Of a stretch of 64,000 nt of DNA, positions 1 through 61,099 are shown piece by piece. Below the pieces are notes generated by a model. The model ran no database searches, was not told the DNA's origin, and worked only from the letters and a program-made list of their open reading frames with translations. The DNA comes from Squalus acanthias (Eukaryota): positions 49,416,001 to 49,480,000 of the forward strand of contig CM059432.1 of NCBI GenBank assembly GCA_030390025.1. The letters are read 5' to 3'. The position numbers and the translations under genes are program-made. How positions within the stretch are numbered: the stretch's first letter is position 1; each line of letters opens with the position of its first letter.

Positions 1-539
1 GGGATATTTGGCATAATCGCAAAATGTGAGGGCGGGTTCGGAACCCGCCTCCAAGCAATTTTGCCAGAGGCGGGTTTCATGGGTGCGATTCGGTCCCGCC
101 TCCATCAGTCGGGGGAGGTAGTTAAGACCCTTAAATAGTCGTTAAGGGCCTCTATAATCCTATTTTGACAGGCCTTTGTTATTTTGCCACATTTTGTGCA
201 TGTTGCACGACCCTCCTAAACCACGCCAGCTAATCCTGGCGGGTTGACAAGTGGGTGGCCTCCTCACAGCTGCAGCTCCACCATTAAAACGGAGCTTTCA
301 TCAGGGAAACATAGAAGATCGGAGCAGGAGTAGGCCATTTTTGACAGATGAAACGTCATACGCTGACGTTCTCTGTAACCGGTTTTCCCTTAATTGGCCT
401 GCTAAGCCCGCTGGGCGGGCTTAACAAGGTCAATCAAGGGAAAATAGCGTGGGTTGGCCAGAAGTTGATGGAGGCGGGACTAAAACCCGACAAGTGGGAG
501 TCCCGCCTCCAAAAGCTCCCCATTGGCAAAATCCAGCCC
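1..539 (+). mobile_element. Non-autonomous Harbinger derivative (MITE); left end lies outside the window; contains 34 bp of a CR1 3' end
   Basis: 21-339 is colinear with 36021-36339, the left arm of the Harbinger at 35967 plus its CR1 junction. 340-539 resembles the Myb-proximal ends of the Harbingers at 13454 and 61089. It ends in a TIR-like aaaatccagccc and is followed by a short CR1 RT fragment (540-582). Confidence 0.8.
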
Positions 540-582
540 GTAGTAAACAGTGAGGTGGATAGTAACAAACTTCAGGAAGACA

Positions 583-1479
583 AGGGGAAAAATTCAGTTG
601 GTTGCGCCTCCCGTTAGCGCCTTAAGAGGGCGCTAATGGGGCGCAAAGCATCTAGCGCCCAGGCGCGGCAAAGTTTGCGCCGCTCGCGAAATTAACTAGA
701 CATTTTGCGGTGGCGCTAAACACTACCGCCACGATCTCCTGCGCCGGCAGATTGTGACGTCAGTCGAGTGCGCAATGCCCCGGTATCGCCCCGGAGCGGA
801 TATTGAGTGGCACCCCCTGCCTTACCGCCTGACGCTAGCAACGACAGGTTGAGGGGAGCGTTCTGCAGTCATGAAGGGAAAGGGGGAGCACTATTTAAAG
901 GTGACCGCTTCCTGCCTTTTATTGTTGGTGCCATTTTTGAATTACGCATTCCGAGAGAGAGAGAGAGAGAGAGACTTCTGGAGAGATTCAACGTTGTGTG
1001 AAGGAGTTTTGGGTACTGAGCAGCACTTTGCAGGTTCATTTTGATTTGCCATTCCTTGTATCGATTTAGAAGAGACTGTGGGGGCTGCACTCGGAGCTCT
1101 TTGCCTGGTACTCTCCATCGTTCTTTCCAGCAGATTTGATGTGCAGGTCTCTCCAGGCCGAGATTCAAGGCTGCAATGAGCAGGATGTGGATGGAAAGCA
1201 AGATCAACCATCCCCTTTAAGAACTGGCCCGTGCCATTGTGTGTGTGTTCCATTGCTGACTGACATTACATGAGCTTCGCCAGCGCTCTGAGGTAGCGCC
1301 TCGCTCCTCGGCCTTTGCGCCTTAAGACAGGTGTGAAGCGCCTGATTTAGCGCTCCAATCACCTCCAGGGGCGATAAAAGTCAAGTTTGCAGTCGGTGGC
1401 GATAATTAGCGCCAGGCGCTAATCTTTGCGCCCGGCCGATAATTGCGCCCCAAATGGGGCGATACTGAATTTCTCACCC
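583..1479. mobile_element. Harbinger-type MITE (GC-rich family also at 11792 and 17862)
   Basis: Imperfect TIRs aggggaaaaattcagt / actgaatttctcaccc; subterminal ttgcgcctcccg...ggcgctaatggggcgc shared with 17862 and, inverted, with 12529; internal (GA)n at about 952-974. Confidence 0.75.
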
Positions 1480-4717: not shown

Positions 4718-4810
4718 GGGGTACAGTAGCATAGTGGTTATGTCACTGAACTAGTAATCCAAAGGCCTGGGCTAATGATCCAGTAGATCCCAGTTCATAA
4801 TCCCACCATG
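4718..4810 (+). promoter_or_regulatory. tRNA-derived internal Pol III promoter (A box 4727-4737, degenerate B box about 4792-4803)
   Basis: tagcatagtgg fits TRGCNNARYGG; agttcataatcc is B-box-like, and copy 2 has the cleaner gagttcaaatcc on the minus strand near 28071-28082. Confidence 0.7.
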
Positions 4811-6760
4811 GCAGCTGGGTAAATTAATTAATTAAATAAATCTGGAATAAAAAGCTACCATCAGTAATAGTGACCATGAAACTACCTAATTGTAATAAAA
4901 ACCTATCTGGTTCACTAATGTCCTTTTAGGGAAGGAAAAGAAATCTGTTGTCCGTACCCGGTCTGGCCTATATGTGACTCCAGACACACAGCAATATGGT
5001 TGACACTTAACTGCCCTTTGAAGTGGCCTAGCAAGCCTCTGTATCTAAACCGTTATGAAAAATTATAACAAGAATAAAACCAGACCGACCGACCGATATC
5101 GACCTAGGCACCAGATTTGGCCATGAAAAGGCACGCCTAGCCCAGTCAACTCTGCAAAGTACGCCTCACTAACATCTGGGGACTTGCTCCAAAATTGAGA
5201 AAGCTGCGCCAAAAATGGGAGAGCTGTCCACAAATTAGTCAAGCAACAGCCTGACAGAGTCATACTCGCAGAATCATATCTTTTAGCCAACGTCCCAGAT
5301 TCCTGCATTAGCATCCCTGGGTCTCTCCTGCCGGGATACAACTGTGGCGGCACAGTGGTATACAGTCAGCAGGGAGTGGCCCTGGAAGTCCTCAACATTG
5401 ACTCCGGACCCCATGAAGTCTCATGGTATCAGGTCAAACATGGGCATGGAAACCTCCTGCTGATTACCACCTACCGCCCTCCCTCAGCTGATGAATCAGT
5501 ACTCCTCCATGTTGAACACCACTTGAAAGAAGCACGGAGGGTAGCAACGGCACAGAATGTACTTTGGGTGGGGGACATCAAAGTCCATCACCAAGAGTAG
5601 CTCGGTCGCACCACTACTGACCGAGCCATGAAGGACATAGCTGCCAGACTTGACCTGCAGCAGGTGGTGAGAGAACCAACACGAGGGAAAAACCTACTTG
5701 ACCTCGTCCTCACCAATCTACCTGTCGCAGATGCATCTGTCCATGACAGCATTGGTAGCAGTGACCACCGCACAGCCATTGTGGAGACGAAGTCCCGTCT
5801 TCACACTGAGGACACCCTCCATCGTGTTGTGTGGCACTACTGCCGTGCTAAATGGGATAGATTCAGAACAGATCTAGCAGCTCAAAACTGGGCATCCATG
5901 AGGCGTTGTGGGCCATCAGCAGCAGCAGAATTGTATTCCACCACAATCTGCAACCTCATGGCCCGGCATATCCCTCACTCTACCATTACCATCAAGCCAG
6001 GGGACCAACCCTGGTCAATAAGGAGTGTAGAAGAGCATGCAAGGAGCAGCACCAGGCGTACCTAAAAATGAGGTGCCAACCTGGGGAAGCTGCAACACAG
6101 GACTACATGCATGCAAAAAAGTGGAAGCAGCATGCTATAGACAGAGCTAAGTGATCCCACAATCAACGCATCAGATCAAAGCTCTGCAGTCCTGCCATTT
6201 CCAGTCGTGACTGGTGGTGGACCATTGAACAATAACGGGAGGAGGAGGCTCCATGAATATCCCCATCCTCAATGATGGTGGAGCACAGCACATTTGCAAC
6301 CATCTTCAGCCAGAAGTGCCGAATGGATGATCCATATCAGCCTCCTCCTGAGGTCCCCACCACCACAGAAGCCAGTTTTCAGCCAATCCGATTCACTCCA
6401 CGTGATATCAAGAAACGGCTGAGTGCACTGGATACAGCAAAGGCTGTGGGCCCCGACAACATCCCGGCTGTCGTGCTGAATACTTGTGCTCCAGAACTAG
6501 CTGCGCCTCTAGCCAAGCTGTTCCAGTACAGCTATAACACTGGCATCTATCCGACAATGTGAAAAACTGCCCAGGTATGTCCTGTCCACAAATAGCAGGA
6601 CAAATCCAATCCGGCCAATTACCGCCCCATCAGTCTACTCTCAATCATCAGCAAAGTGATGGAAGGTGTAGTCGACATTGCTAGCAAGTGGCACTTACTC
6701 ACCAATAACCTGCTCACTGATGCCCAATTTGGGTTCCGCCAAGACCACTCGGCTCCAGAC

Positions 6761-7772
6761 AGAGGGAAAGTAGAAAGTGAGGAGGACATAAAAAACCTAC
6801 AAGGGGATATAGACAAGCTGGGTGAGTGGGCAGAGATTTGGCAGATGCAATACAATATTGGAAAATGTGAGGTTATGCACTTTGGCAGGAAAAATCAGAG
6901 AGCAAGTTATTATCTTAATGGCGAGAAACTGGAAAGTACTGCAGTACAAAGGGATCTGGGGGTCCTAGTGCAAGAAAATCAGAAAGTTAGTATGCAGGTG
7001 CAGCAGGTGATCAAGAAGGCCAACGGAATGTTGGCTTTTATTGCTAGGGGGATAGATTATAAAAACAGGGAGGTATTGCTGCAGTTATATAAGGTATTGG
7101 TGAGACCGCATCTGGAATACTGCATACAGTTTTGGTGTCCATACTTAAGAAAAGACATACTTGCTCTCGAGGCAGTACAAAGAAGGTTCACTCGGTTAAT
7201 CCCTGGGATGAGGGGGTGGACATACGAGGAGAGGTTGAGTAGATTGGGACTCTACTCATTGGAGTTCAGAAGAATGAGAGGCGATCTTATTGAAACATAT
7301 AAGATTGTGAAGGGGCTTGATCGGGTGGATGCGGTAAGGATGTTCCCAAGGATGGGTGAAACTAGAACTAGGGGGCATAATCTTAGAATAAGGGGCTGCT
7401 CTTTCAAAACTGAGATGAGGAGAAACTTCTTCACTCAGAGGGTAGTAGGTCTGTGGAATTTGCTGCCCCAGGAAGCTGTGGAAGCTACATCATTAAATAA
7501 ATTTAAAACAGAAATAGACAGTTTCCTAGAAGTAAAGGGAATTAGGGGTTACGGGGAGCGGGCAGGAAATTGGACATGAGGCTGAGTTCGGATCGGTCGA
7601 GGCCCTGTGGGTGGCGTAGCGGGCCCAGGGGCTGAGTGGCCGGGTCCTGCTCCTACTTCTTGTGTTCTTTAGATTTGAGGTGAGGATCAGATCAGCCATG
7701 ATCTTATTGAATGGCGGAGCAGGCTCGAAGGGCCGATTGGCCTACTCCTGCTCCTATTTCTTATGTTCTTAT
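6761..7772 (+). mobile_element. Young 5'-truncated CR1 LINE nested in the tRNA-headed LINE
   Basis: Open RT C-terminal frame to 7579; near-identical to 47127-48137; ends in ttcttatgttcttat; the host sequence ggctccagac | tacagccttgg resumes on either side. Confidence 0.95.
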
Positions 7773-8977
7773 TACAGCCTTGGTCCAAACATGGACAAAA
7801 GAGCTGAATTCCAGAGGTGAAGTGAGAGTGACTGCCCTTGACATCAAGGCAGCATTTGACTGAGTGTCGAATCAAGGAGCCCTGGTAATACTGAAGTCAA
7901 TGGGAATCAGGGGGAAAACTCTCCACTGGCTGGAGTCATACCTAGCACAAAGGAAGATGGTTGTGATGGTTGGAAGTCAATCATCACAGCCCCAGGATAT
8001 CACTGCAGGAGTTCCTCAGGGCAGTGTCCTAGGCCCAACCATCTTCAGCTACTTCATCAATGACCTTCCCTCCATCATAAAGTCAGAAGTGGGGATGTTC
8101 GCTGATGATTGCACAGTGTTCAGCGCCATTCACAACTCCTCAGCTCATGAAGCAGTCCATGCCCGCTTGCAGCAAGACCTTGATGACATTCAGGCTTGGG
8201 CTGATAAGTGGCAGCTAACATTCACGCCACACAAGTGCCAGGCAATGACTATCTCCAAAAAGAGAGCTCCTTAACATTCAATGGTATTACCATTGCCGAA
8301 TCCCCCACCATCAACATCTTGGGGGCACCATTGACCAGAAACTTAACTGGACCAGCCACATAAATACTGTGGCAACAAGAGCAGGTCAGAGGCTGGGTAT
8401 TCTGCGGCAAGTGTCTCACCTCCTGACTCCCCAAATCCTTTCCACTATCTACAAGGCACAAGTCAGGAGTGTGATGGAATACTCTCCATCATTACAGCCC
8501 CAACATCATTCAAGAAGCTCGACACCATCCAAGACAAAGCAGTCCGCTTGATTAGCACCCCATCCACCACCTTAAACATTCACTCCCTCCACCACTGGCG
8601 TACCATGGCTGCCATGTGTACCATCTTCAAGATGCACTGCAGCAACTCGCCAAGGCTTCTTCGGCAGCACCTCCCAAACCCACGACCTCTACCAGCTAGA
8701 AGGACAAGGGCAGCAGGCACATGGAAACACCATCACCTCCAAGTTCCCCTCCAAGTCACACACCATCCTGACTTGGAAGTATGTCGCCGTTCCTTCATCG
8801 TCGCTGGGTCAAAACCCTGGAACTCCCTCCCTAACAGCACTGTGGGAGTACCTTCACCATACAGACTGCAGCAGTTCAAGAAGGCGGCTCACCACCACCT
8901 TCTCAAGGGCAACTAGGGATGGGCAATAAATGCTGGCTTTGCCAGCGACACCCGCATCCCATGAACAAATTTTAAAA

Positions 8978-11352
8978 AACAGTAAATGATCCATGGGAGT
9001 CCTTCAAAGAGGAGATAGTTCGGGTACAGAATAGACACATTCCAATGAGGGAAAAAAGGCCATCCAAAGCTAGAGCTCCCTGGATGACTAAAGAAAGATT
9101 AAAATGAAACAGAAAAAGGAGGCTTATGAGAAATGTCAGGTTCATAATACAGTAGAGAATCAAGCTGAATACAGAGAGAGTGCAGAGGAAAACTGAAAAA
9201 GGGAATAAGAGGGGGAAAGAGAATGTATTTGAAAAGATTAACAGGTAACATAGAAGGGAACACTGAAGTCTTTTCTAAACATAGAAAGAGTAAAAGGGTA
9301 GTCAAGGGAAGAGTGAAGCTGATTAGAGACCAAAAAGGAAATCTTATTGTGGAGGCCGAGGACATGGCTGAGGTACTAACTGAGTACTTTGCATCTGACA
9401 TCACTAAAAAAAGGATGCTGTCAATGTTACAGTAAAGGAGGAGGGGGTAGAGGAATTGGATAGGATAAAAATAAAGAGGTACTAAAACACCTGGCAGTGT
9501 AGAAAAGTCACCCGGCCCAGATGGGATGCATCTTCGGTTGCTGAGAAATGTATGGGTGGATAAAGCGGAGGCTCTGCCCACAAACTTTCAATCCTCCTTG
9601 GAAATGGGAGTGGTACAAGAGGACTGGAGGGTTGCAAGTGTTACACCCCTGTTCAAAAAAGGGGAGATAGATAAACCAGGTAACTACGAGCCAGTCAACC
9701 TAACATTGACGGTGGGGAAACTTCTCGAGACAATAATCTGAGACAAAATTAATTGTCACTTGGAAGAACATGGGTTAATAAATGACAGCCCGCACAGATT
9801 TGTTAAAAGCAAATCCTGTTTGACTAACTTGATTTAGGTTCTTCGATGAACGATCACATGGTTTTTGCGTGGAGTGGAGAGTATATATATTGTGATGCAT
9901 CACAATTGTGCGGGACAGGCTGGATGGACCAGAGGGTCTTTTCCGTTCAGTCATTGTTCGTACGTTTGTATGAAGGTTGATTTTGTGTATTTGGACTTTC
10001 AAAAGACACTTGATAAAGTGCCACATAATAGACTGGTTAGCAAAATTGAAGCCCACGGGATTAAAGGGGCAGTGGCGGCTGACAAGACAGAAAACAGAGA
10101 GTAGTAGTGAACGGTTGTTTTTCCAGACTGGAGGGAAGTATACAGTGTTGTTCCCCAGAGGTCGGTATTAGGACCACTGTTCTTTTTGATATGTATTAAT
10201 GGCCTGGACTTGGGTATGGGGGCATAATTTCAAAGTTTGTGGCTGACACAAAGCTTGGAAATGTAGTAAACAGCGGAGGAGGATAGTAACAGACTTCAGG
10301 AGGACATAGACAGACTGGTGAAATGGGAAGACACATGGCAAATGAAATTTAATGCAGAGAAGTATGAAGTGATGCATTTTGGAAGGAAAAATGAGAGGCA
10401 GTATAAACTAAATAATACAATTTAAAGGGGGTGCAGGAACAAGGAGACCTGGGGGTGTATGCACGCAAATCTTTGAAGGTGAAAGGACAAGTCGATAAGG
10501 CTGTTAATAAGGCCTACGGGATCCTTGGGCATATTAATAGAGGCATAGCATACAAAAGCAAGGAAATGATGGTAAATCTTTATAAATCACTGGTTACACC
10601 TCAGCTAGAGTAGTGTGTTCAATTCTGGGCACCACAATTTAGAAAGGGTGTCAAGGCCTTGGAGAGAGTACAGAAGAGATTTACTAGAATGGTACCAGAG
10701 ATGAGGGAACTTATTTATGTTGGGAGACTAGAAAAGCTGGGCTTGTTCTCCTTAAAGCAAAGGAGGTTAAGGGGAGATTTAATAGAGCCTTTCAAAATTA
10801 TGAGAAGTTTTGACAGCGTAGATAACAACAACAACTTGCATTAAAAAGCATCTTTAACGTAGTAAAATATCCCAATGCGCTTCACAGGAGCAAACAAAAT
10901 TGGACACCGAGCCACATAAGATGATATTAGGACAGATGATCAAAAGTTTGGTCAAAGAGGTAGGTTTTAAGGAGCGTTTTAAAGGATGAGAGAGAAGTAG
11001 AGAGGCTGAGTGGCTTAGGGGGTTAATTAGATAGGGAGAAACTGTTTCCACTAGCAGGAGGGTCAGTAACTGGAGGACACAGATTTAAGATAATTGGCAA
11101 AAAATCCAGCGAGGTGAAAGAAGGAGGAAATGTCTTACTCATTGTGTTATGATGTTCTGGAATGCATTGCCTGAAAGGGTGGCGGAAGCAGATTAGATAG
11201 TAACTTTCAAAAGGGAATTGGATATATGCTTGAAAAAGAAAAATTTGAAGGGCTATGGGGAAAGAGCAGGAGAGTGGTACTAATTGGTAGCTCTTTCAGA
11301 GAACACAGGCATCATGGGCCGAATGGCCTCCTTCTGTGCTGTATGATTCTAT
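8978..11352 (+). mobile_element. Degraded CR1 LINE (ORF2 RT region and 3' end) with nested inserts
   Basis: Fragments encode VTPLFKKG, VYLDFQK..DKVPH and LGLFSL; the 3' end is gtatgattctatg. Confidence 0.9.
10825..11027 (-). mobile_element. L2 LINE 3' terminal fragment inserted into a CR1
   Basis: Flanked by a tagata duplication (10819-10824 / 11028-11033); encodes an L2-like C-terminus (LKRSLKPTSL); ends in a (gtt)n tail; terminal sequence resembles the Deu-SINE tail. Confidence 0.7.
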
Positions 11353-13417: not shown

Positions 13418-13722
13418 TCCCTATATGGAAATATATTAAGGAACAGAGACAGAGGCCACGATTTTCCCAGCGGAGGCAGGTTGGAGTCGGGTTGAGTGGT
13501 CAGCAGCTTCCGGTCCCACTGCCGGCTTCAGCCGCTCCGAAATAACAATTTTAATTTAACTGGGCTTATTAGGCCCGCTGTGCGTGCTACCCGGCCCAAT
13601 CAGTGGGTTCGTGTGTGCTGCTCGCCTCTGCTGACTTCTTCCATTCAGGAGCTTTTAAGGGGCCCATGTAGCCTTTAGATTTCATTTCCTTTCTGCTGCT
13701 CCTGAAAACGAGGCTTTTGAAC

Positions 13723-14367
13723 ATGACTGCTGCAAGATCTAAGGCTGCTCCTAGATTTGATGATGACTCCCTCCATTCTCTTGTGGAGTAAGAGGGCGCA
13801 GGGAGGTTTTGTTCCCTCCCGATGGCCGGAGGAAGCCTCCTCAGCAGACAAAGGCAGCCTGGCTGAAAATTGGTGAGGAGGTAAGCGCAAGGTCGTTGTG
13901 CTCACGTACCTGGGTGCAGTGACGAAAAAGGTTCAATGATCTGCTACGCTCAGCAAAAGTGAGTATAACATCACACTTACCTTCAATCTGCTTCCCTTCT
14001 GTTCTCATCACCAGCACTTTGACATTGTCAACCTACTCCTCCATATCCCAACTTACCCTTACTTCCCTTGCACCCTTACCTATCCCTCTCTCTCTATGTA
14101 GAGAATCACTTCACCATCCAACTATGCACCCCTCACACTCGCTATCACTGTTATGCAATGACAACAACTAACAACGCACAGGGAGGCACCTTGGTTTTGG
14201 CACCTCACTCCATCTTTGTCTCCCTCTAAGCTTCTATGTTATGGATTCTTCACACTCACTCCATCAAGGTGCAGCATAGAAGTGAGCAAAGTGCCTCTAC
14301 ATCTGCTGAAGCCACAGGGGAAGAACCACATAGAAGCACGCGCAAGAGAAAGTTAACACACAAATAG
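13723..14367 (+). pseudogene. Harbinger Myb/SANT-like DNA-binding partner (exon 1 at 13723-13958, last exon about 14260-14367; middle deleted)
   Basis: Manual translation gives MTAARSKAAPRFDDDSL...REVLFP...KAAWLKIGEEVSARS...RTWVQ*RKRFNDL followed by a GTGAGT donor; the C-terminus SASTSAEATGEEPHRSTRKRKLTHK* matches ORF 41395-41727. Confidence 0.8.
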
Positions 14368-14560
14368 TCACAAGGGTAGTCACTTGGGTGTTTTCATCTG
14401 ATACAAACGTTTGTCATTGTGATTATAATTGTATTAAAGAAAAGCGATGGCAAAGATTCAAAGAGTTGGCCTATGTGTGCTCAGAAATGGAAGTTGCACA
14501 GTGAGGGGTCAGGGCGCCTTTCATTTGTAATGATGGTGGTGAAAGTGATAGAAAACCAGT

Positions 14561-15786
14561 TTATTTTACAGATGCTGTATAGTGTGTTAAGAAGGTCGGC
14601 CAGACATTCATTTCCATGTGCCAGCCATATGTGCTTGATGCCCTTGCCTCACAGTCAGCAATGTGCTCGTGTGCTGGTGGATTTGGCACATCCGCCCCCA
14701 CAAGGCATCCCTCATCTGCCGCCTCCTCCTCCTCTTCCGAGGAGGCTGTGCGCTGAGCCATTTGTTCCTCAGGCAGCGCTAAGCCACGCTGCTATGCAAT
14801 GTTGTGCAGGGCACAGCAGGCCACGATGATTCTGGAGACCCTGGCTGGTGCGTACTGTAGGGCTCCACCAGATCTGTCGCGGCATCTGAATTGCATTTTG
14901 AGCAAGCTGATGGTTTGCTCTATGATACTTCTGGTGGAAATGTGGCTCACATTGTACCGCTCCTCAGCTTTGTTTGATGGCCTCATCGGTGTCATTAGCC
15001 ACTTTTTCAGGGGATAGCCCTTGTCTCCAAGTAGCCATCTGGAAAGTTAGGTTGGCGGATTGAAGAACTGCGGCACAGTGAACTGCCGCAGGATGAAAGA
15101 GTCATGGCAACTGCCAGGGAACTTGGCGCAAACATGCATGATAATCTTCCTGTGGTTACACACCAGCTGGACGTCAAGGGAGTGGAAGCCCTTGCGGTTG
15201 ACAAATACAGCTGGGTTGTGATGGGGTGCCCTAATGGCCACATGTATGCAGTCTACGACGCCCTGCACCCTTGGAAAGCCTGCCATATTTGCAAAGCCAA
15301 CTACACGCGCAGTTACACTTGCTTCATCTGTGGAGAAGTGGATGTAATTGTGTGACTTTGCAAAGAGGGCATCGGTAACCTGCGTGATGCAAGTGTGTGC
15401 GGCCGACTGGGAGATGCTGCTGATGATCCCTGGAAGGACCCCGAAGCAAAGAAGTTGAGTGCGGTGGTGACTTTTACAGCCACTGGTAAGGAGTGGCCAC
15501 CCGCTCCTCTGGGCTCCAGGTGTTGGTGCAGCATTGTGCAGATGTCAGCGACTACCTCTCCATCAATAGTCTCAGCTTCCTTTGGCACTGCTTCTCACTC
15601 ATGTTGAGGAAGCTCATCCTCGGCCTGTAAACCCTGTGTTGGGGGTATCTCCGGCCCTCTGCCCTGTGCATCATCAGGTGGCTGAGGAGAAGGTTGGCGC
15701 TCCTGTTGTGCCTGGTTCTGCTGCTGCCGTGGCTGCTCTTCCTCCGATTCTGAGGACCAGGATGAGAGGGTATAAATGGTTCCCAT
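14561..15786 (-). pseudogene. Harbinger (HARBI1-like) DDE transposase, frameshifted
   Basis: Motifs [59 protein letters not shown] and ACCALHNIA. Confidence 0.93.
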
Positions 15787-16769
15787 CCCGCTGGTATATA
15801 TCTCAGTTGAGAAAGAGATGTTATCAGCGCTCAGTCAATGTGGCCAGAGGGTATTCCAAGGAGGTCACAGTGCATATGGATCTCAGCTTAAACACTCACA
15901 AGCTCAATAGACCTGCAAAATATGCTCCAAAACTTAAAGCACAAAGTTCTGGCATCTGAAAGTGAGCAATGTTGCACGACCGCTTTTATGCTGCAGCAGC
16001 AGCTGTCAACAATTCAGCTACTTGCTGAACCCGGCACAATCAGCTGGCGTGTTTGTCGCACGACGGACAACATGCTGAAAATGTTGTAAAATGGGAAGAG
16101 CCAGTAAAAAAAGGATTATCTAGGCAGTTAACAAGCTGTTAACTGCCTTAAGTGCCTCTCCCGCCGTTTGGTGTCGGGTCTCATCGGGACTCGCAGACCC
16201 TACGCAAAGTTACGTGGAGGCGGGATGGCGGCGGGTTCGCAACCCACCATCAATCTTTTGGATTTTAACTCCCGACCCGTCTCCAAACCTGCCCTCTGAG
16301 CGCCAGCAAAATCGTGGCCAGGGTCTAAAAATAATTTTTAAAAATAGACTTTGATCCAACAAGGCCACAACACAGGATAATCAAATTACAAACATATTTG
16401 AAATGTGCCAAGACTGAATATACTGAAATACAAACCTAATCAATAATGAGTCCATACTGTCCTGAGGTTATTATCTACTGCTTGGCCGTAGCACCTACCC
16501 ATTAGATAATAAAGGGCAATTAAAGACCAAGAGTCATTTTCACAGATTAAAAACTTAGTAAGAATATTCCTACAATATTTATTTTAGCTTCTAGACAACC
16601 AACTACACAATAAAACAAATCAACAGTAAAACCAATTTTTGACAGTATGCTGGAATTGAGGAAAGTAGATACATTGAAGCAACATAACTTTGTAGCAAAT
16701 ATGTCAAGATCTAGCTCTAACTGGATGATTCAGATTTACATAGATGGATTGTCAGATCCTAAATCATAA

Positions 16770-18831: not shown

Positions 18832-20980
18832 CTTTGTTTTTTATTCATTCACGGGATGTGGGCATCGCTGGCAAGGCCAGCATTTATTGCCCATCCATAA
18901 TTGAGAAGGTGGTGGTGAGCCACCTTCTTGAACCGCGGTATTCCGTGTGGTGAAGGTACTCCCACAGTACTGTTAGAAACATAGAAAAATAGGAGCAGGG
19001 ATAGGCCATTTGGCCCTTCGAGCCTGCTCCGCCATTCAATATGATCATGGCTGATCCTCTATCTCAATACCATATTCCCGCTCTCTCCCCATACCCCTTG
19101 ATGCCTTTTGTGTCTAGAAATCTATCTATCACCTTCTTAAATATATTCAGTGACTTGGCCTCCACAGCCTTCTGTGGTAGAGAATTCCACAGGTTCACCA
19201 CCCTCTGAGTGAAGAAATTTCTCCTCATCTCAGTCCTAAATGTCCTACCCCGTATCCTGAGACTGTGACCCCTCGTTCTAGAGCCCCCAGCCAGGGGAAA
19301 CATCCTCCCTGCATCCAGTCTGTCTAGCCCTGTCAGAATTTTATACGTTTCAATGAGATCCCCTCTCATTCTTCTAAACTCTAGTGAATACAGGCCTAGT
19401 CGGCCCAATCTCTCCTCATAAGACAGTCCTGCCATCCCAGGAATCAGTCTGGTGAACCTTCGCTGCTCTCCCTCTATGGCAAGTATATCCTTTCTTAGGT
19501 AAGGAGACCAAAACTGCACACAGTACTCCAGGTGTGGTCTCACCAAGGCCCTGTACAACTGTAGTAAGACATCCTTGCTCCTGTACTCAAACCCTCTTGC
19601 AATGAAGGCCAACATACCATTTGCCTTCCTAACTGCATGCTGCACCTGCATGTTTGCTTTCAGTGACTGGTGTACAAGGACACCCAGGTCCCTTTGTACA
19701 TCAACATTTCCCAATCTATCACCATTTAAATACTCTACCTTTCTGTTTTTCCTACCAAAGTGGATAACTTCACATTTATCCACATTATACTGCATCTGCC
19801 ATGTATTTGCCCACTCACTCAACTTGTCTAAATCGCCTTGAAGCCGCTTTGCATCCTCCTCACAACTCACAATCCCACCTAGTTTTGTGTCGTCAGCAAA
19901 CTTGGAAATATTACATTTGGTTCCCTCATCCAAATCATTGATATACATTGTGAATAGCTGGGGCCCAAGCACTAATCCCTGCGGTACCCCACTAGTCACC
20001 GCCTACCACCCCGAAAAAGACCCATTTATTCCAACTCTGTTTCCTGTCTGTTAACCAATTTTCAATCCATGCCAGTATATTACCCCCAATCCCATGTGCT
20101 TTAATTTTGCACACTAACCTCTTATGTGGGACTTTATCAAAGGCCTTCTGAAAATCCAAATACACCACATCCACTGGTTCTCCCTTATCTATTCTACCAG
20201 TTACATCCTCAAAAAACTCCAGTCGGTTTGTCAAACACGATTTCCCTTTCATAAATCCATGCTGACTTTGTCTAATCCCGTTGATATTTTCTAAGTGTCC
20301 TGTTATCACATCCTTTATAATACTCTAGCATTTTCCCTACTACTGATGTTAGGCTAACCGGACTGTAGTTCCCAGTTTTCTCTCTCCCTCCTTTTTTAAA
20401 TAGTGGGGTTACATTTGCCACCCTCCAATCTGCAGGAACTGTTCCATAATCTATAGAATTTTGGAAGATGACAACCAATGCATCCACTATTTCCATGGCT
20501 ACCTCTTTTAGTACTCTGGAATGCAGATTATCAGGCCCTGGGGATTTATCAGCTTTCAGTCCCATTAATTTCTCCAGCACTATTTTATTACTGATACTAA
20601 TTTCCTTTAATTCCTCCTTCTCACTAGACCCTTGGTTCCCTAGCATTTCTGGGAAGTTATTTGTATCCTCTTCTGTGAAGACAGAACCAAAGTATTTGTT
20701 TAATTGCCCTGCCATTTTCTTGTTCCCCATTATAAATTCTCCCGTTTCTGACTGGAAGGGACCTACATTTGTCTTCACTAATCTTTTTCTTTTTACATAC
20801 TTATAGAAGCTTTTACAATCCGCTAGGTAGGGAATTCCAGGATTTTGACCCAGCGACGATGAAGGAACGGTAATATATTTCCAAGTCAGGATGGTGTGTG
20901 ACTTGAAGGGGAACATAAAGGTGCTGGTGTTCCCATGCCCCTGTTGCCCTTTTAGGTGGTAGAGGTCGTGAGTTTGGGGC
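18832..20980 (-). mobile_element. 3' fragment of the tRNA-headed LINE family (copy 3), split by a CR1
   Basis: 18832-18976 and 20821-20980 together match 24972-25280. Confidence 0.85.
18977..20820 (-). mobile_element. 5'-truncated CR1 LINE (ORF2 RT)
   Basis: ORFs 20272-20916, 19992-20309 and 19064-19999 carry SPGPD, YLDFQKAFDKVPH, GVPQG and KFADDTK; 3' tail ttctatgttt. Confidence 0.95.
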
Positions 20981-22479: not shown

Positions 22480-23095
22480 CTTTGCCAGTTTTTCATGCTT
22501 CCATTTCTACCTGCCTTAACCACTGCCCGCACCCACCTCAGCTATTCGCATATTCTCAATGTCTCACACATCTCTTTAATTTCTCTCATTATACTTCCGA
22601 CTGTTCCACAATAATATCACTTCAGCCATTTAACCATCTTCTGTTTTCCACTTTGTTCCCTCAGTTCTGTTCATTTTTAAATGCTGCTCTTCTGTAAAAG
22701 CCTCCAGTTCTGATGAAGTGGTCAAACCTCAAGCATGGGGGGCAATTTTAACCCTACTCGCTCAGCACAAACCTGGCGGGTGGGCAGTTAAAATCGCCCT
22801 GGCTCTTACCTATCCGAAAGCCGCCATGATCGCAACATCTGCAATTTTAACCTGCTCTCCTGAGCAGGCAGCAAGGGCATGTGCCTAGAGCCAACAGGGT
22901 CCTTCTTTACATATGCATGTTGTGGCCCGATGATGTCATTGAGACCCGACTGTAATTTTAACTCAGGCCTGAGCAGGGAATCCACTTGGAGTTAAAATCG
23001 GGGTAATTGACTTGTATGTTCTCTCCACAGATGCTGACTGACCTCCTGGAGTGTTTACAGCATTTTCTGTTTTTCTTCCAGATTTCCAGTTTTGT
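22480..23095 (+). mobile_element. Degenerate Penelope-like 3' end/pLTR with a decayed hammerhead, interrupted by a MITE (about 22738-23005)
   Basis: agttctgatgaa at 22706; after the MITE, ctctccacagatgctgactgacc...cagcattttctgttttt...agatttccag matches the pLTR sequence at 61790-61848. Confidence 0.65.
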
Positions 23096-24003: not shown

Positions 24004-24971
24004 GCAGTAACCATGAAGGCATCTAATCTAGTGTAAATTATGTTTTAAATATATATTTAATGACATCTGTTTGTGTGCAACATTGCTATACTGTTGAGTT
24101 CCTAAAAAAGGAAAGCCTGCAGGAACTTTTCTATGTCAGGAAAAAGTGTGCATTATACACAAATATGCATGAAAAAGTAAACTTTATCTGGGCGGTTCTG
24201 TGATCTGGTGGTGCAAGCAGAGAGTGCATCGCGAGAAATCCATGGGTATGCACTGTGATTTTCTGTCCATTAAACTAATGGATGGAAAATTGCCAACAGC
24301 ATGCCCACAATTTCCCAAGATGAACTCTGAGTAACTGCATCTCGCTGGAAGCTCTAGATTGTGGAATTGCTCCTTATATGTAGTGCGCATTATAGGTTAT
24401 ATTTTCCAATCAGTGATCAAGTCTGACTGTCAAGTACATTCTACATTCCTTTGTACTTTTGCAGGCAGATTTAAAACCCATTTAAAATACATAGGTTAAT
24501 GTCTGCCTAAAGACAGCACACAGAGGAATGTAATATGAGCACGCTTAGCATTTATATTTGATTGGAAAATACACACCTGTATGTGATGTGTAATGTGTGC
24601 AAAAATTGATTACTTAGCTGCATTGTAGGCCATATTTAACTTTCTTTTCTCATGTTTGACACTAAATTTGACAGGATTTATTTTTCTCATTTTTTCTTTT
24701 GAAGCTCCCAAGAACTTTCAGTTTCATAGTAATACCCTATGCAACTAAACAATAGATGGTCATGTTCTTCAGCTTAAATTTCCAGATCAGTGGGACCCCA
24801 GAGATACGGCATGAATGGCTAAAATTGGCCATTCTCACCATTTCTCCAGGGATTCCGTTGATCTACAGCCAAAGTTACATCAGAGGATTGGCAAAATCCT
24901 GGAGAAATTCACGGCCATTCTCCTCATTGTTTAAAATTAGTTCTACCTCTTCTCTAATCTGCTCTTTTAAG

Positions 24972-27900: not shown

Positions 27901-28152
27901 CATTTCAGAGGGCAGTTACATATAGGCCAGACCAGGTAAGGACTGCAGATTTCCTTCCCTAAGGGCATTAGTGAACAAGATAGGTTTTTACAACATGATT
28001 ACCATTACTGATACCAGCTTTTTATTTAATATTAATTAATTAATATTTAAATTCCCCAGCTGCCGTGGTGGGATTTGAACTCACGTCTGTGGATCATTAG
28101 TCCAGGCCTCTGGATTACTAGCCCAGTGACAGTACCACTACGTTACCGTTCC
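24972..28152 (-). mobile_element. Single-ORF APE-RT LINE with a tRNA-like 5' head, copy 2 (near full length, decayed)
   Basis: ORF fragments 27507-27818, 26551-27420, 26248-26523, 25798-26109 and 25033-25548 carry APE and RT motifs; the head at 27850-28152 is homologous to 4718-5100; A-rich 3' tail. Confidence 0.92.
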
Positions 28153-31509: not shown

Positions 31510-33548
31510 TAGGCTACTTTATTTTTAAGCAAATGTTAGTGATGCGACAGCGATCGCTGCTGACCTCAAGGAAAACTGCCCACAAAGATCTCACGATCTC
31601 TGTGGCGAAAACTTTAGCTTTCTCAACCTTAATTTGTAGCGCTATCAATTAGCCAGCATACAGCAGCAGTGATGTCATCAAGCTGTCTAAGCAGCCAATC
31701 ATATTGAAGAATTCTCACAGACAGCAAACCAGGAATGAAAAAGCACTGATTATCATTCATAGAACTTAGAACATTTCAGAAGGAGGCCATTCAACCCACC
31801 GTGTCTGTGCCAGCTGAAAAAGAGCTATCCAGTCTAATCCCACTTTCCAGCTCTTGGTCCGTAGTCTTGTAGGCTACGGCACTCAAGAGCATATCCAAGT
31901 ACTTTTTAAATGTGATGAGCGTTTCTGCCTCTACCAACGTTTCAGGCAGTGAGTTCCAGACCCCACCACCCTCTGGGTGAAAAAAGTTCTCCTCAACTCC
32001 CCTCTAATCCTTTTACTTTAAATCTATGCCCCCTGGTTATTGACTTCTCTGTTAGGGGAAATAGGTCCTTCCTATCCCCTCTATCTAGGCCTCTCATAAT
32101 TTTGTACACCTCAATCAAGTCTCCCCATCAGCCTCCTCTGTTCCAAAGAAAACAACCCCAGCCTATCCAACCTTTCCTCATAGCTAAAATTCTCTAGGCC
32201 TGGCAACATCCTCATAAATCTCTTCTGGACCCTCTCCAGTGCAATCACATCTTTCCTGTAATGCGGTGACCAGAACTGCACGCAGTATTCTAGCTGTGGC
32301 CAAACTAGTGTTTTATACAGTTCAAGCATAACCTCCCTGCTCTTATGTTCTATGCCTCGGCTAATAAAGGGCAGTATCCCATATGCCTTCTTACCCACCT
32401 TATCTACCTGTCCTGCTACCTTCAGGGATCTGTGGACATGCACTCCCAAGTCCCACTGTTCCTCTACATTTCTTAGTATCCTAACATTTATTGTGTATTC
32501 CCTTGCCTTGTTAGCCCTCCCCAAATGCATTACCTCAAACTTCTCTGGATCAAATTCCATTGCCTCTTTTCTGCCCACCTGACCAGTCAATTGATATCTT
32601 CCTGCAGTCTACAGCTTTCTTCCTCACTATTAACCACACGGCCAATTTTTGTATCATCTGCGAACTTCTTAATCATGCCCCCTACATTGAAGTCTAAATC
32701 ATTGATGTATACCACAAAAAGCAAGGGACCTAGTAGTGAGCCCTGCGGAACCCCACAGGAAACAGTTTTCCAGTCACAAAAACATCCCCTGACTATTACC
32801 CTTTGCTTCCTGCCACTGAGCCAATTTTGGATCTAACTTGCCACTTTCCCTTGGATCCCATGGGCTTTTACTTTTCTGACCAGTCTGCCATGTGGGAACT
32901 TGTCAAAAGCCTTGCTAAAATCCATAAAGACTACATCAAACGCACTACCCTCATCGACCCTCATTGTTACCTCCTCAAAAAATTCAATCTAGTTAGTCAG
33001 ACACGACCTTCCTTTAACAAATCCATGCTAACTGTCGTTGATTAATTCACTTCTTAAAAATTTTACAGAGAGCAAAATAAAGATTGGTACATTCTCATGG
33101 GGTTAAGGTAGAAGCTGAAATATCATAAACTTTAAAAAATATATATTTTTATTTCAAAAATCTAGTCATTTTTATCATAATGGAGAAATGTGATTCCACA
33201 AATATAAAATTAGTTTTTCAGGGCCAGAATGATTGTTCAGTCAATATGCTGTTAAAACCCCAGTTACACCTATTTCAAACAAGGCTCAACTTTTTATGGG
33301 GTGTTTTAACAGCGATATTAGAGCGGAAAAGGGGAAGTTTTCATCAGTTGAAGTGATTTCACGGATTGCCGGCTATAAGGAGTTCTACAGCGCAGCCTGT
33401 GGCCGAGCAGGGAATGACTGACCACAACTTCTGGATTTCCGCGTTTATCTGCGCATGCGCTAAATCCTGAAGTTACAGTCAGTATCAGAGGGGTAATAAC
33501 AGCAAACGCTAACAGTTTCGCCCTCATTGCCACTTCAAAATCTGGGCC
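31510..33548 (-). mobile_element. MITE of the 56164-56931 family, split by a CR1 insertion
   Basis: 31530-31757 and 33046-33548 match the reverse complement of 56164-56931; terminus aaaatctgggcc. Confidence 0.7.
31757..33045 (-). mobile_element. 5'-truncated CR1 LINE
   Basis: ORF 32111-32590 carries LYKTLVWPQLEYCVQFWSP; upstream RT motifs are present; tail ttctaagttctatga. Confidence 0.9.
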
Positions 33549-33562
33549 ATTGTGTTTTTTTA

Positions 33563-35348: not shown

Positions 35349-36305
35349 TTTGCGAAGCGCACTTGAACATCAGTAACAATCCTTCAAAGGGTACCATGCA
35401 TATTTTTCAAACCTTTTGAGCCTTAGTTATAAAGCGAGAATGATCTTTCCAAATTGGCAATATCCCAGAGAATTTCCCTCCCGCTATTTAAGGTAGAGAA
35501 TTCTTCTTCTATGCATTGAAGGGTTTCACATTTTCTTGCTGTATGTAATAGCCACTGGGTGAGTTTAATTAAGTTTTGGTCCCTTAGGAAATCACATGGC
35601 AGGCCAGGAAGAAAATATATTCTGCAAGTATCTTGTTCAGTGATATCATGAATAACCTCTCATACTTAAATCCAAAAAATGAAGTCCAAGGCTTGTCCAA
35701 AACGTACTTGAGGATTCCACAGCCTACAGTCAACTTAAAGTTATAGTGATGTTTCACTTAGTGACAGACTTTACCGTATACATTTTTGCCATTACAAATT
35801 TATGGACAGAGAGTCTGTGGTCATTTCCTCCGTTTCTCTATCTGAAATATTTCTTTCTCATGCAGTTTTAAGAATTGCAGAGAATAGAACATTAGTTCAG
35901 TATTAATTCTTGTATTTTAGATAAATCTATATCAATGAGCTGGGCTATCAGGAATTTGGTTAACATGGGAGGTGATTTTCCCAGCCCCGAGGAGGCGGGT
36001 TTGGAGGCGGGACAGTTGGCAAAATCTGAGGGCGGGTTCGGAACCCGCCTCCAAGCAATTTTGCCGGAGGCAGTTTTGATGGGTGCGATTCGGTCCCGCC
36101 TCCATCAGTCCAGAGAGGTAGTTAAGACCCTTAAATGGTAGTTAAGGGCCTCTATAAACCTATTTTAATAGGCCCTCGTTATTTTACCACATTTTCAGCG
36201 TGTTGCACGACCCACCTAAATCACGCCAGCTAAAACTGGCGGGTTGACAAGTGGGTGGCCTCCTCACAGCTGCAGCTCCACCATTAAAACAGAGCTTTCA
36301 TCCAG

Positions 36306-39300
36306 GAAACATAGAAGATAGGAGCAGGAGTAGGCCATTCGGCCCCTCGAGCCTGAGCCGCCATTTAATGAGATCATGGCTGATCATCCAAATTCAGTAC
36401 CCTGTCCCTGCTTTCTCCCCATATCCCTTGATCCCTTTAGCCTTAAGAAATATATCTAACTCCTTCTTGAATATATTTAATGAATTGGCCTCTACTGCCT
36501 TCTGTGGTAGAGAATTCCACAGGTTCACCACTCTCTGGGTGAAGAAATTCCTCCTCATCTCAGTCCTAAATGGCTTACCCCTTATCCTTAGATTGTGACC
36601 CCTGGTTCTGGACTCCCCCGCCATCGGGAACATCTTTCCTGCATCTAGTCTGTCTAGTCCTGTTAGAATTTTATACGTTTCAATGAGATCCCCTCTCATT
36701 CTTCTAAACTCTAGCGAATATAAGCCTAATCGACCCAATCTCTCCTCATACGTCATTCCTGCCATCCCAGGTATCAGTCTGGTGAATCTTCACTGCACTC
36801 CCTCCATGGCAAGAACATCCTTCCTCAGATAAGGCGACCAAAACTGCACACAATACTCAAGGTGTGGTCTCACCAAGGCCTGGTACAACTGCAGCAAGAC
36901 ATCCTTGCTCCTGTACTCGAATCCGCTCGCTATGAAGGCCAACATACCATTTGCCTTCTTAACCACATGCTGAACCTGCATCCTTACCTTCAGCGACTGG
37001 TGCACAAGGACACTCAGGTCTCGTTGCACTTCCCCTTTTCCCAATCTATTGCCGTTCAGATATTAATCTGTCTTCCTGTTTTTGCCACCGAAGTGGATAA
37101 CCTCGCATTTATCCACATTATACTGCATTTGCCATGCATCTGCCCAATCACCCAACCTGTCCAAATCATACTGGAGTTTCTCTGCATCCTCCTCACAGCA
37201 CACACACCCACCCAGCTTTGTGTTGTCTGCAAACTTGGAGATATTACATCTAGTTCCCTCATCTAGATCATTTATATATATTGTGAATAGCTGGGGTCCT
37301 AGCACCGATCCCTGCGGTATCCCACTAGTCACTGCCTGCCACTCAGAAAAAGACCCGTTTATTCCAACTCTTTGCTTCCTGTCTGCCAACCAGTTCTCTA
37401 TCCAAGACAGTACCTTACCCCCAATCCCGTGTGCTTTAACTTTGCATGCTAATCTCTTATGCGGGACCTTATCGAAAGCCTTCTGAAAGTCCAAATACAC
37501 CACATCCACTGGTTCTCCCTTCTCTATTCTACCAGTTACATCCTCAAAAAATTCCAGTAGATTAGTCAAGCATGATTTACCTTTTGTAAATCCATGTTGA
37601 CTTTGTCCGATCCTGTCACTGTTTTCCAAGTGCTCTGCTATTACATCTTTTATAATGGACTCTAGCATTTTCCCCACTACCAATGTCAGGCTTACCGGTC
37701 TATAATTCCCCGTTTTCTCTCGACCACCTTTTTAAATAGTGGGGTTACATTAGCTATCCTCCAATCCATGGGAATTGTTCCAGAGTCTATAGAATTTTGG
37801 AAGATGACCAGCAATGCATCTACTATTTCTAGGGCCACTTCCTTAAGTACCCTAGGATGTAGATTATCAGGCCCTGGGGATTTATCGACCTTCAATCCCG
37901 TCAATTTCCCTAACACCATTTCCCTACAAATACTGATTTCATTCAGTTTCTCCCTCTCATTAGACCCTATGTTCCCCGACATCTCTGGGAGGTTATTTGT
38001 GTCCTCCTTTGTGAAGACAGAACCAAAGTATGTATTTAATTGGTCTGCCATTTCTTTGTTCCCCATTATAAATTCCCCTGATTCTGACTGCAAGGGACCT
38101 ACGCTTGACTTCACCAATCTTTTTCACTTCACATATCTATAGAAGCTTTTACAGTCAGTTTTTATGTTCCCTGCAAGCTTACTCTCATAATCTATTTTCC
38201 CCCTCTTAATTAATCCCTTTGTCCTCCTTTGCTGAATCCTAAACTGCTCCCAATCCTCAGGTTTGCTGCTTTTTCTGGCCAAATTATATGTCCTCTCCTT
38301 AGATCTTATGCTATCCCTAATTTCCCTTGTTAGCCACGGTTGAGTCACCTTTTTTGTTTTATTTTTATGCCAAACAGGGATGAACAAATTCTGTAGTTCA
38401 TCCATGCGATCTTTAAATGTTTGCCATTGTCTATCCACCGTCAACCCTTTAAGCAACGTTCCCCAATCCATCCTAACCAACTCGTGCCTCATACCATCGT
38501 AGTTTCCTTTATTTAAATTCAGGACCCTAGTCTCTGAGTCAACTACTTCACTCTCCATTTTAATGAAAAATTCTATCATATTATGATCGCTCCTCCCCAA
38601 GGGGCCTCGCACAACAAGATTGCTAATTAATCCTTTCTCATTGCATAATACCCAGTCTAAGATGGCCTGATCTCTAGTTGGTTCCTCAACATATTGGTTC
38701 AGGAAACCATCCCGTATGCACTCTAGGAATTCCTCCTCCACAGTATTGTTACTAATTTGGTTAGCCCAATCTACATGTAGATTAAAGTCACCCATGATAA
38801 CTGCAGTGCCCTTATTGCACGCATCTCTAATTTCCCGTTTAATGCCATCCCCAACCTCAGCATTACTGTTTGGGGGTCTGTATAGAACTCCCACTAACGT
38901 TTTCTGCCCCTTGGTATTTCTCAGCTCTACCCATACAGATTCCACATCATCAGAGCGAATATCCTTCCTTACAATTGTGTTAATCTCCTCTTTAACCAGC
39001 AATGCTATCCCACCTCCTTTTCCTTTTTTCCTGTCCTTCCTGAATATTGAATACCCCTGGATGTTGAATTCCCAGTCTTGGTCACTCTGGAGCCATGTCT
39101 CCGTAATCCCAATTATATCATATCCGTTTACATCTATTTGCACAGCTAATTCATCCACCTTATTACGAATGCTCCTCGCATTAAGACACAAAGTCTTCAG
39201 GCTTGATTTTTTAACACTCTTAGTCCTTTTAGAATTATTATTTACTGTGGCCCTGTTTGATTTACCCCCTTGATTTCTCTGCTTTCCACTTTTGCTTTTC

Positions 39301-39755
39301 TCCTTCCTGTCTTTTGTTTCTATCCTTGTTGCCCTTTCCTCTGTCTCCCTGCACAGGTTCCCAACCCCCTGCCATTTTAGTTTAACCCCTCCCCAACAGC
39401 ACTAGCAAACACTCCCCCTAGGACATCGGTTCCGGTCACGCCCAGGTGCAAACCGTCCAGTTTGTACTGGTCCCACCTCCCCCAGAACCGGTTCCAATGT
39501 CCCAGGAATTTGAATCCCTCCCCCTTGCACCATTCCTCTAGCCACGTATTCATCTGAAATATACTTCTATTTCTACTCTGACAAGCACATGGCACTGGTA
39601 GCAATCCTGAGATTACTACCTTTGAGGTCCTATTTTTTAATTTACCTCCTAACTCTCTATATTCAGCTTTTAGGACCTCATCCCGTTTTTTACCTATATC
39701 TTTGGTACCTATATGCACCACGACAACTGGCTGTTCACCCTCCCCCTCCAGAATG
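36306..39755 (-). mobile_element. CR1 LINE truncated within the ORF1 esterase; ORF2 APE-RT with few disruptions
   Basis: ORFs 39377-39721 (esterase HIGT.D...DGLHL), 38124-39191 (APE: LNARSI, ITETWL, YRPP, GDFN, SDH) and 37692-38117, 37063-37683, 36790-37044, 36394-36765 (RT). Confidence 0.96.
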
Positions 39756-39926: not shown

Positions 39927-41139
39927 ATGGGAGCCATTTATTTCCTTTCTTCATGGACCTCAGATTCGGATGAGGAGCAGCCACGGCAGCAGCAGAACCA
40001 GGCAGCTCAGCAGCAACAGCAGCTGGAGCCCCAACCTGCTGCTCACCCACCTGATGCTTCACAGGGCAGAAGGCGCCAGCACATCGAGACACCTCACCGC
40101 AGGAGATACCCCCAACACAGGGTTTACAGACAGAGGATAACCTACCTCAACATGTGTGAGCAGCAGTGCCAAAGGAGGCTGAGACTTTCGCGAGAGGTTG
40201 TCGGAGACATCTGCGCACTGCTGCACCAACACCTGGAGCCCAGAGGAGCGGGTGGACACCCCTTACCAGTGGCTGTCAAAGTCACCACCGCACTCAACTT
40301 TTTTGCCTCAGGCTCCTTCCAGGGATCATCAGCAGACATCAGCGGCATCTCACAGTCGGCCGCCCACAGTTGCATCATGCAGGTTACCAATGCCCTTTTC
40401 GCAAAGGCCCACAATTACATCAAGCAAGTGTAACTGCACGTTCAGTTGGCTTTGCCAATATGGCAGGCTTGCCAATGGTGCAGGGCGTCATAGACTGCAC
40501 ACATGTGGCCCTTAGGGCACATCATTACAACCCAGCTATCTTTGTCAACCGCAAAGGCTTCCACTCTCTCAAAGTACAGCTGGTGTGTAACCACAAGAAG
40601 GGGATTTTGCATGTTTGCGCCAAGTTCTGTGGTAGTTGCTATGACTCGTTCATCCTGTGGAACTCTAGTGTTCCTCCGCTCTTCAATCTGCCAAACCAAC
40701 TTAACAGATGGCTCCTTGGTGACAAGGGCTACCCCCTTGAAGAAGTGGCTAATGATGCCGATCAGGAGGCCAGCTAACGAGGCTGAAGAGCGCTACACGC
40801 CAGCCACATTTCGACCAGGTCCATCATCGACAAACCATTGGCTTGTTGAAGATGCAATTCCGATGCCTTGACAGATCAGGTGAACCCCTGCAGTATTCAG
40901 CAGCCAGGGTCTCCAGAATGGTTGTGGTCTGCTGTGCGCTGCACAACATGGCACAGCGTCGTGGCTTGCAACTTCCTGATGAGCAAGTAGCTCAGTTCAT
41001 AGCCTCCTCAGAAGAGGATGAGGATGAGGAGCAGGAGGAGGACCGAGCACCGGCCTATCGGCCAGCAGCAGTGGCAGCACGCGAGCACATGGCTGCCCGT
41101 GATGGAAGGCATGCACTTATCCTGGCCAGATTTGCATAG
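39927..41139 (+). pseudogene. Harbinger (HARBI1-like) DDE transposase, frameshifted
   Basis: MGAIYF...RLRLSR...[10 protein letters not shown]...[41 protein letters not shown] and CCALHN. Confidence 0.94.
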
Positions 41140-41394
41140 GTTGCCCATGTTGGCACATGTCCTTGGCTCCATCTTAAGATATGATTGACAATGGACATGA
41201 CTCTCTGGCCTCCTTTCACTCTGGCCACAAACCTCACCATGCAAGTGTCGCAAAGCCCGCAATGTGGAGCTGCCTAAGGCGAAATATCAGATGCCATCAC
41301 GCCAACAATTTGCCATCAAATCATTTTTATACTTTCAAACAGGGATGGCATTTTGTCAATACACAAACATTCACCCAAGTGGCTACCCCTGTGA

Positions 41395-41750
41395 CTAATG
41401 GTGCTTTATTTTTCTCTTATGCGCGCTCCTACGTGGTGCTCCCCCTGTGGCTTCAGCAGAAGTGGAGGCATCTTGCTCACTTTCATGCTGCTCCTGCTTC
41501 AACACTTTTGGCAGGCATCCTCTGGGTTTATGAGCCTGTGAGGGCTCACCAAACATCTGCTCCTCCTGCGGCAGTGCAGGGGCTGAGACGCCCATCTCAG
41601 TTGGGTGGGGACTCTGGTGGGGCTCTGACTGAGGGCTACGCAGTGGCATGGAAGTGTGAGCGCTTGGAGAGGAGCCCCCACTTCCTTGTTGTCTGCCACC
41701 AACTTCCCTCTCATGGGTCAGGTCCACCTCAGTGCTTGCAATGGGCTTGA
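41395..41750 (-). pseudogene. C-terminal exon of the Harbinger Myb-like partner
   Basis: Ends ASTSAEATGGAPRRSAHKRKIKHH, homologous to 14260-14367, and converges on the transposase. Confidence 0.7.
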
Positions 41751-61089: not shown

Positions 61090-61099
61090 ATTGTGTTTG

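Follow-up and report, generated by a model that had tools for sequence, protein, structure and literature searches.

The locus

The window, i.e., the whole stretch of 64,000 nucleotides from Squalus acanthias that was analysed, begins within a small Harbinger-type element that ends at position 539. About 36 kb to the right lies a larger Harbinger copy interrupted by a LINE, here called the 36k element. The following features are discussed below, given as coordinates, strand and description.

1..305, plus strand: Harbinger left arm, cut by the window edge; matches 36009-36305, and a CR1-free relative at 16163-15980 at 69.6%
306..339, minus strand: 34 bp from the 3' terminus of a CR1, antisense, with the ATT microhomology (337-339) as the last letters; 33 of 34 letters identical to 36306-36339; loose contig ends at 306 and at 339 are as expected of CR1 tails
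337..539, plus strand: Harbinger-type right arm of an abundant family, beginning at the palindrome axis 337/338; terminal repeat at 528-539
540..582, plus strand: LINE reverse-transcriptase fragment, the right flank; matches 10263-10306; its first three bases, GTA, are the candidate target-site duplication (TSD)
13454..16319, minus strand: CR1-free, more distant Harbinger relative with identical 12-bp ends, transposase and Myb exon; used to place the insertion site
35968..36305, plus strand: left arm of the larger Harbinger copy with its left end, whose terminal motif has the form seen at other ends in the window; the flank is not a LINE
36306..39755, minus strand: CR1-type LINE of 3,450 bp, 5'-truncated and frame-broken, which runs antisense within the 5' part of the transposase; domain matches Exo_endo_phos E 6.5e-13, RVT_1 E 9.5e-31
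39927..41139, plus strand: broken Harbinger transposase gene; DDE_Tnp_4 (PF13359) E 1.9e-14; 78% to 15869-14724
41372..41745, minus strand: C-terminal part of a second (Myb-like) gene, 82% similar to 14267-14390 in the relative; the element stops at about this point (approximate end)

The small element and its flank

The sequence-only reading had taken 1-539 for a MITE. A Harbinger-type end does exist at 528-539, yet the stretch is not a whole MITE since its left side is cut by the window edge. Judged by the left end of the 36k element at 35968, the left terminal inverted repeat (TIR) is expected approximately 41 bp upstream of window base 1. The length would be about 580 bp if the left end resembles that at 35968. 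There is no open reading frame of 150 aa. Bases 1-18 were considered as the TIR and rejected, as they match the internal stretch 36009-36026 at 15 of 18 positions. Each of the two loci displays one end only within the window. The right arm, 337-539, weakly matches right ends at 13.4-13.6 kb and 60.9-61.1 kb. Folded as DNA, 1-539 forms a stable structure (z -7.5), which reflects subterminal repeats and does not discriminate between the readings weighed below.

The LINE fragment to the right belongs to a repeat whose consensus continues on both sides, in 47-94 contigs before 540 and in 75-119 after 582 per listed run. Because this reverse-transcriptase consensus continues upstream of 540, GTA is the candidate TSD of the small element. 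A second Harbinger-type MITE is located at 584-1479, 43 bp to the right of the small element and inside the same LINE fragment. In the comparison of the window with itself the LINE of 540-582 does not resume past this MITE.

The 36k element and its CR1 insert

The 36k element encodes a DDE transposase of the DDE_Tnp_4 type. The first exon of the second gene was scored in the relative at 13454-16319 (Myb_DNA-bind_5, PF13873, E 7.2e-07); the Myb domain itself is scored there only, and the 36k copy keeps the C-terminal part. When the 36k element is aligned to this CR1-free relative, the sides flanking the LINE at 36306-39755 join in register. Therefore, the LINE was inserted into the transposase gene, in its 5' region. 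The four letters GGGA at 39755-39758 recur intact at 304-307 in the small element and are a possible TSD of 3-4 bp of the CR1 insertion, apparently better kept in the small element.

CR1-clade LINEs possess an APE endonuclease and a reverse transcriptase, a 3' tail of octamer repeats, and frequently are truncated at the 5' end. The LINE at 36306-39755 carries the endonuclease and reverse transcriptase domains, and among the loose ends listed contigs of all four aligned sequencing runs (described below) continue an 8-letter unit before 306. I provisionally call it CR1 on the basis of its domains and the octamer tail. It matches 18976-20820 at 84% and 44525-47931 at 68-74%. A target specificity of CR1 was considered and rejected because each of two other nested CR1s has entered its host repeat at a different site.

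No right end of the 36k element is present in the window, and downstream of about 41745 there is no further Harbinger match. Consequently, 340-539 lacks support as the element's own right end. The terminal 12 bases of the 36k left end and of the end at 528-539 agree at 8 of 12 positions, those of the two ends of the relative 13454-16319 at 12 of 12. A direct repeat of 102 bp (92%) brackets the 36k element at 35247-35348 and 41835-41934. The downstream copy starts some 90 bp beyond the break of the element and looks like an insertion templated by the upstream flank when the right end was lost. A source for 41740-41840 was not found on either strand of 34500-35970.

Two loci share one Harbinger/CR1 junction

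The sequence-only reading had reported a gap-free alignment of 21-339 to 36021-36339. This is correct and can be extended: 19-339 align with 36019-36339 with 294 of 321 letters identical (blastn E 7.6e-129, window self-comparison). The alignment passes the Harbinger/CR1 junction and continues, just as had been described, through 34 bp of the CR1 tail. There the two loci are far closer to each other (33/34) than 306-339 is to three other CR1 3' ends among the blastn matches listed (86-87%). The 27 substitutions, 14 transitions and 13 transversions of which 5 are CpG decays, are scattered, and similarity between the copies stops after 339; both points had been noted. The junction, claimed to be preserved exactly, is not: letters 303 and 304 differ between the two loci.

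A single CR1 that entered the 5' part of one Harbinger copy in antisense orientation gave rise to both junctions. It is extremely unlikely that a second copy was hit independently at this very site by a severely truncated CR1 or by a SINE with a CR1 tail. CR1 is dense in this region, a contig of run X15 has an independent CR1 tail at position 247, and a SINE paired with a LINE, HE1 with HER1, is described for sharks (PMC3747384). Yet a hit at the same site within 2 bp and in the same orientation has a chance of about 1.6e-4, given how densely CR1 ends occur in the window. Further, both copies are devoid of an additional tail unit that other CR1 ends commonly have, and the identity of 33/34 stands against 86-87% for the other CR1 ends listed.

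The round offset of 36,000 bp had been called a probable coincidence, with the caution that an assembly or window artefact should be excluded. Homology reaches window base 1, and owing to an 8-bp tandem duplication in the small element (11-26) the letters 1-18 align with 36009-36026 at an offset of 36,008. The round number is a coincidence for this very reason. The divergence is far above that which a duplicated piece of the assembly would show. Among the contig pieces listed there is no long match of nearly 100% to the locus, which together with the round offset would fit an artefact. Against it stand the 27 substitutions, the 8-bp duplication, the shifted offset, and five runs from two studies which contain 0.65-0.67 of the words of 33000-42500. 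An artefact thus merits next to no credence, and the worry can be laid to rest.

Divergence steps down toward the junction, with 23 of 217 letters differing in 19-235 against 4 of 104 in 236-339. The Fisher test gives p 0.052, and a permutation in which the change point is searched gives p 0.14. Tests for a mosaic left arm, by change point and by the longest identical run, were not significant (p 0.14 each).

Evidence from public contigs

Twenty public sequencing runs matched 33000-42500. Four of them, none from among those with small shares of this stretch, were aligned to window positions 1-600 at 80% likeness, i.e., X1 and X5 (organism A, two studies), X15 (organism E) and X18 (organism G). 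All consist of contigs, which were used for presence and breakpoints only; sequencing depth is not copy number. The results comprise 40 of 157 rows of differences, 15 of 53 joints, 24 of 1,468 loose ends and 32 of 90,094 pieces.

All four runs contain many members of the left-arm family. At least 23 of 16,977 records in X1 and at least 27 of 9,258 in X5 leave the arm at position 300 without entering CR1. The last 23 letters of the consensus of the contigs leaving there match 39759-39781 at 20 of 23 positions (compared by hand), i.e., DNA that follows the CR1 in the 36k element. Therefore, the family exists without CR1 at the insertion site. At the other side, at least 343 contigs of X18 exit at 539 into unlike flanks. 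The right end at 539 is a true, dispersed transposon end. In X1 the summed depth is about 15,000 at 21-80 and 0.4-2.5 million at 341-440, figures which do not translate into copy number. Among the 32 of 90,094 pieces listed no contig bridges 305/306 or 339/340 or spans the locus of the small element.

The second breakpoint has a peculiar structure. In at least 27 contigs of X5 a loose end precedes 337, and the 14 letters nearest to it are the reverse complement of 339-352. Because these letters mirror 339-352, the second break lies on what is, in these copies, a palindrome axis at 337/338. The ATT at 337-339 fits CR1 and the right arm equally, a microhomology of 3 bp. The palindrome was found in one run, X5, among the 24 of 1,468 loose-end rows listed, and it may reflect a fold-back artefact or belong to the right arm of the composite itself. 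Seven letters at 296-302, next to the first breakpoint, are the reverse complement of 347-353 and match the mirrored half of the palindrome, a coincidence noticed after the fact.

Twelve of the 23 differing sites in 19-235 are among the rows listed. At ten of these the letter of the 36k copy makes up 10-86% of the X1 depth. At site 114 it accounts for 99.6%, which leaves at most 0.4% for the letter of the small element, and at site 167 it occurs in one X1 contig with a depth of 9.5 of 43,365. The changes at 114 and 167 look private. At the other ten sites both letters appear to be subfamily states, as though the two arms stemmed from different subfamilies; three of the ten are CpG sites, and third letters may exist beyond the 40 of 157 rows listed.

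Among the joints listed, one X15 contig passes from position 247 of the left arm into a CR1 tail, i.e., an independent CR1 insertion into the family, and another passes into a CR1 tail at 543. Metagenome scans with a pattern of the left arm and with one of the abundant right arm gave 0 stretches each, and a scan of viral contigs for the junction of CR1 and right arm also gave 0. Since even the abundant right arm was absent, these scans say nothing about copy number.

Origin of the small element

We consider it somewhat probable that the small element is a local repair product, in which a break at a palindrome was filled by template switching from the neighbour 36 kb away. The sequence of events would have been as follows. 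The Harbinger copy at 35968 received a single antisense CR1 in its 5' region, as the junctions display. A non-autonomous element derived from Harbinger, of which the right end is seen and the left end presumed, would have landed in the LINE 36 kb away. This resident element may have broken at or near its central palindrome. The broken end would have invaded the neighbour by virtue of left-arm similarity, and copying would have continued over the Harbinger/CR1 junction and 34 bp of CR1 until the copied strand rejoined the resident right arm at the common ATT on the palindrome axis. The tract taken from the neighbour may comprise the whole left arm or the inner part only, about 236-339, and the first switch may have been guided by the 7 bp at 296-302 that match the palindrome's mirrored half. 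The subfamily letters, the drop in divergence and the 7-bp match, none of them decisive, incline us to a mosaic, i.e., a resident element with a centre overwritten from its neighbour. On this reading the 3.45-kb CR1 would never have moved as transposon cargo and the scar would be a by-product present once or in low copy.

A second break on a palindrome axis with microhomology fits repair. The repair reading is also favoured by the CR1-free form of the family at this site and by the report of Tan et al. (2021; PMC8277862) that captures present once are close to their source and carry microhomology. A local event is further favoured because the two copies are only 36 kb apart. Assuming a genome of 3-5 Gb, the chance of a family member within 36 kb is 0.001-0.002 for 100 random copies and 0.014-0.024 for 1,000. 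This argument is weakened because a reader of a window notices exactly such pairs.

The sequence-only reading had proposed a different history: the composite was a master that went on transposing, and a deletion inside it gave rise to a MITE with a CR1 scar, which in the form weighed here became a dispersed family. The single CR1 insertion common to both loci and a deletion-type join to a right end hold. The master, its continued transposition and the scar-bearing family have not gained support. There is a precedent in Anolis, where hobo families carry CR1, Penelope and SINE inserts (PMC3014272). The right end is truly dispersed, as seen with the X18 contigs, the left-arm family is numerous in four runs, and several sites commonly carry the letter of the small element, which a scar-MITE family would also produce. 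Yet the sole left-arm exit near the junction among those listed is free of CR1, the two loci are neighbours where random dispersal rarely yields copies 36 kb apart, and the join is a break at a palindrome axis with microhomology. The rarity in X1 of the 36k letter at 167 and of the small-element letter at 114 points in the same direction, weakly so because these are single sites. We regard this history as improbable.

One local hop is unlikely to a similar degree. Here the composite would have resided first in the LINE at the left edge, been excised by Harbinger transposase and reinserted at 35968, while abortive gap repair left a deletion derivative at the donor site; the CR1 would have been cargo once, and the right end of the 36k copy would have been lost then or later. 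One event would account for proximity, common junction and ATT microhomology, and MITEs have been described that arose by abortive gap repair with microhomology (PMC3814204). The right side of the 36k element bears signs of repair, i.e., the 92% copy of 102 bp from the upstream flank, and the letters of the candidate TSD are better kept in the small element than in the 36k copy. A hop, however, predicts private differences only, whereas the 36k letter has an intermediate share at 10 of the 12 listed sites. In addition, the terminal bases agree at just 8 of 12 positions, and the palindrome is required to be within the composite's own right arm. A local segmental duplication which included the left flank of the 36k element and later was fused to an unrelated right arm would agree with the proximity and the gap-free match, and the left flank is outside the window. 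It is nevertheless very unlikely because the right end is situated in a LINE at a Harbinger-like target (GTA), which suggests a real insertion with the same LINE as left flank.

Comparison with known systems

The elements of the window resemble PIF/Harbinger transposons, e.g., Harbinger3_DR, in the combination of a DDE transposase with an opposite, putative Myb/SANT gene, of which the domain is seen in the relative at 13454-16319, and in short terminal repeats and a candidate TSD of 3 bp (PMC2213677). The candidate here is GTA, in contrast to the CWG target consensus of Harbinger3_DR (PMC3016246).

The closest counterpart of the preferred repair reading are Pack-TIRs of a single copy. According to Tan et al. 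(2021; PMC8277862), 56.9% of these are within 15 kb of their source, 67.6% have microhomology with a median of 2 bp, and multicopy captures are always distal. On the repair reading the small element is, like them, a TIR element with filler from the same chromosome, an internal break and short microhomology at the breakpoint (PMC8277862), the latter being the ATT at 337-339. Unlike in Pack-TIRs, the filler is transposon DNA, a Harbinger arm and a CR1 tail, rather than host sequence, and the source is 36 kb away. This distance exceeds the class below 15 kb that is typical of Pack-TIRs and counts against the repair reading. The small element works like a Pack-TIR; as its filler is not host sequence it is not filed as one.

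The family history has its counterpart in Anolis carolinensis, where hobo_AC and hobo-N were amplified with pieces of CR1, Penelope and SINEs and later suffered partial deletions of the inserts (Novick et al., PMC3014272). For autonomous hobo the authors favoured capture of genomic DNA over insertion into the element (PMC3014272). The likeness extends to DNA transposons with CR1 pieces, partial deletions and recombination between elements (PMC3014272). The differences are that hobo is a hAT transposon in which amplification of the cargo was demonstrated (PMC3014272), whereas here a Harbinger and two neighbouring loci only are at hand.

In Aedes aegypti the MITEs Gnome, Elf and Goblin derive from Ozma by gap repair with microhomologies of 6-8 bp (Yang et al., 2013; PMC3814204). 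For Goblin template switching was proposed (PMC3814204). Such miniaturisation by gap repair parallels what is proposed for the small element. In contrast to the small element these are Tc1/mariner elements without a reported LINE scar, and they are demonstrated families (PMC3814204).

The CR1 insert shares the APE endonuclease and reverse transcriptase, the octamer tail and the 5' truncation with the HER1-type CR1 LINEs of cartilaginous fish, a likeness drawn from general features of the clade and not from sequence. Literature searches at the level of titles returned no report on the small element, and the accessible part of PMC5753468 holds no usable statement on Ricksha.

Implications

Under the local-repair reading, the origin of the small element most likely is an ordinary kind of event. 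If this reading is true, the locus is a tidy example of chimeric MITE-like elements born by repair at palindromes. It is also a warning that two copies of a nested junction are not proof of cargo transposition. Mobilisation of CR1 cargo by a family is unproven, i.e., neither supported nor refuted, and would be no new kind of event. If true, it would add a Harbinger case to the hitch-hiking of LINEs known from hAT elements of lizards and provide a marker for ordering Harbinger and CR1 activity. No working LINE would spread in this way because the CR1 cargo is 5'-truncated and frame-broken. In its strongest form a shark Harbinger lineage would have amplified a 3.45-kb CR1, i.e., DNA coding for endonuclease and reverse transcriptase, as cargo; a deletion guided by a hairpin would have founded a dispersed MITE family with a 34-bp LINE scar, and autonomous element, composite and MITE would form a dated series. 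We regard this scenario as rather doubtful.

Other repeats in the window

A near-perfect palindrome of 192 bp, 97% self-complementary, is located at 61613-61849, and related half copies are present at 45608-45750, 58602-58697 and 23020-23089. The half copy at 45608 interrupts a CR1, and fold-back elements seem to be common in the window. The CR1 copies at 6762-7772 and 18976-20820 are nested at different sites of one repeat (4720-8980 and 18837-20978, with a relative at 24971-28152). The former is 97.8% identical to 47127-48137, i.e., a young subfamily. Decayed Harbinger relics at 52300-55300 and 59400-61115 include one interrupted by a MITE and one with most of the transposase deleted. A tandem repeat of 75 bp occurs in about five copies, 99-100% identical, at 43326-43696.
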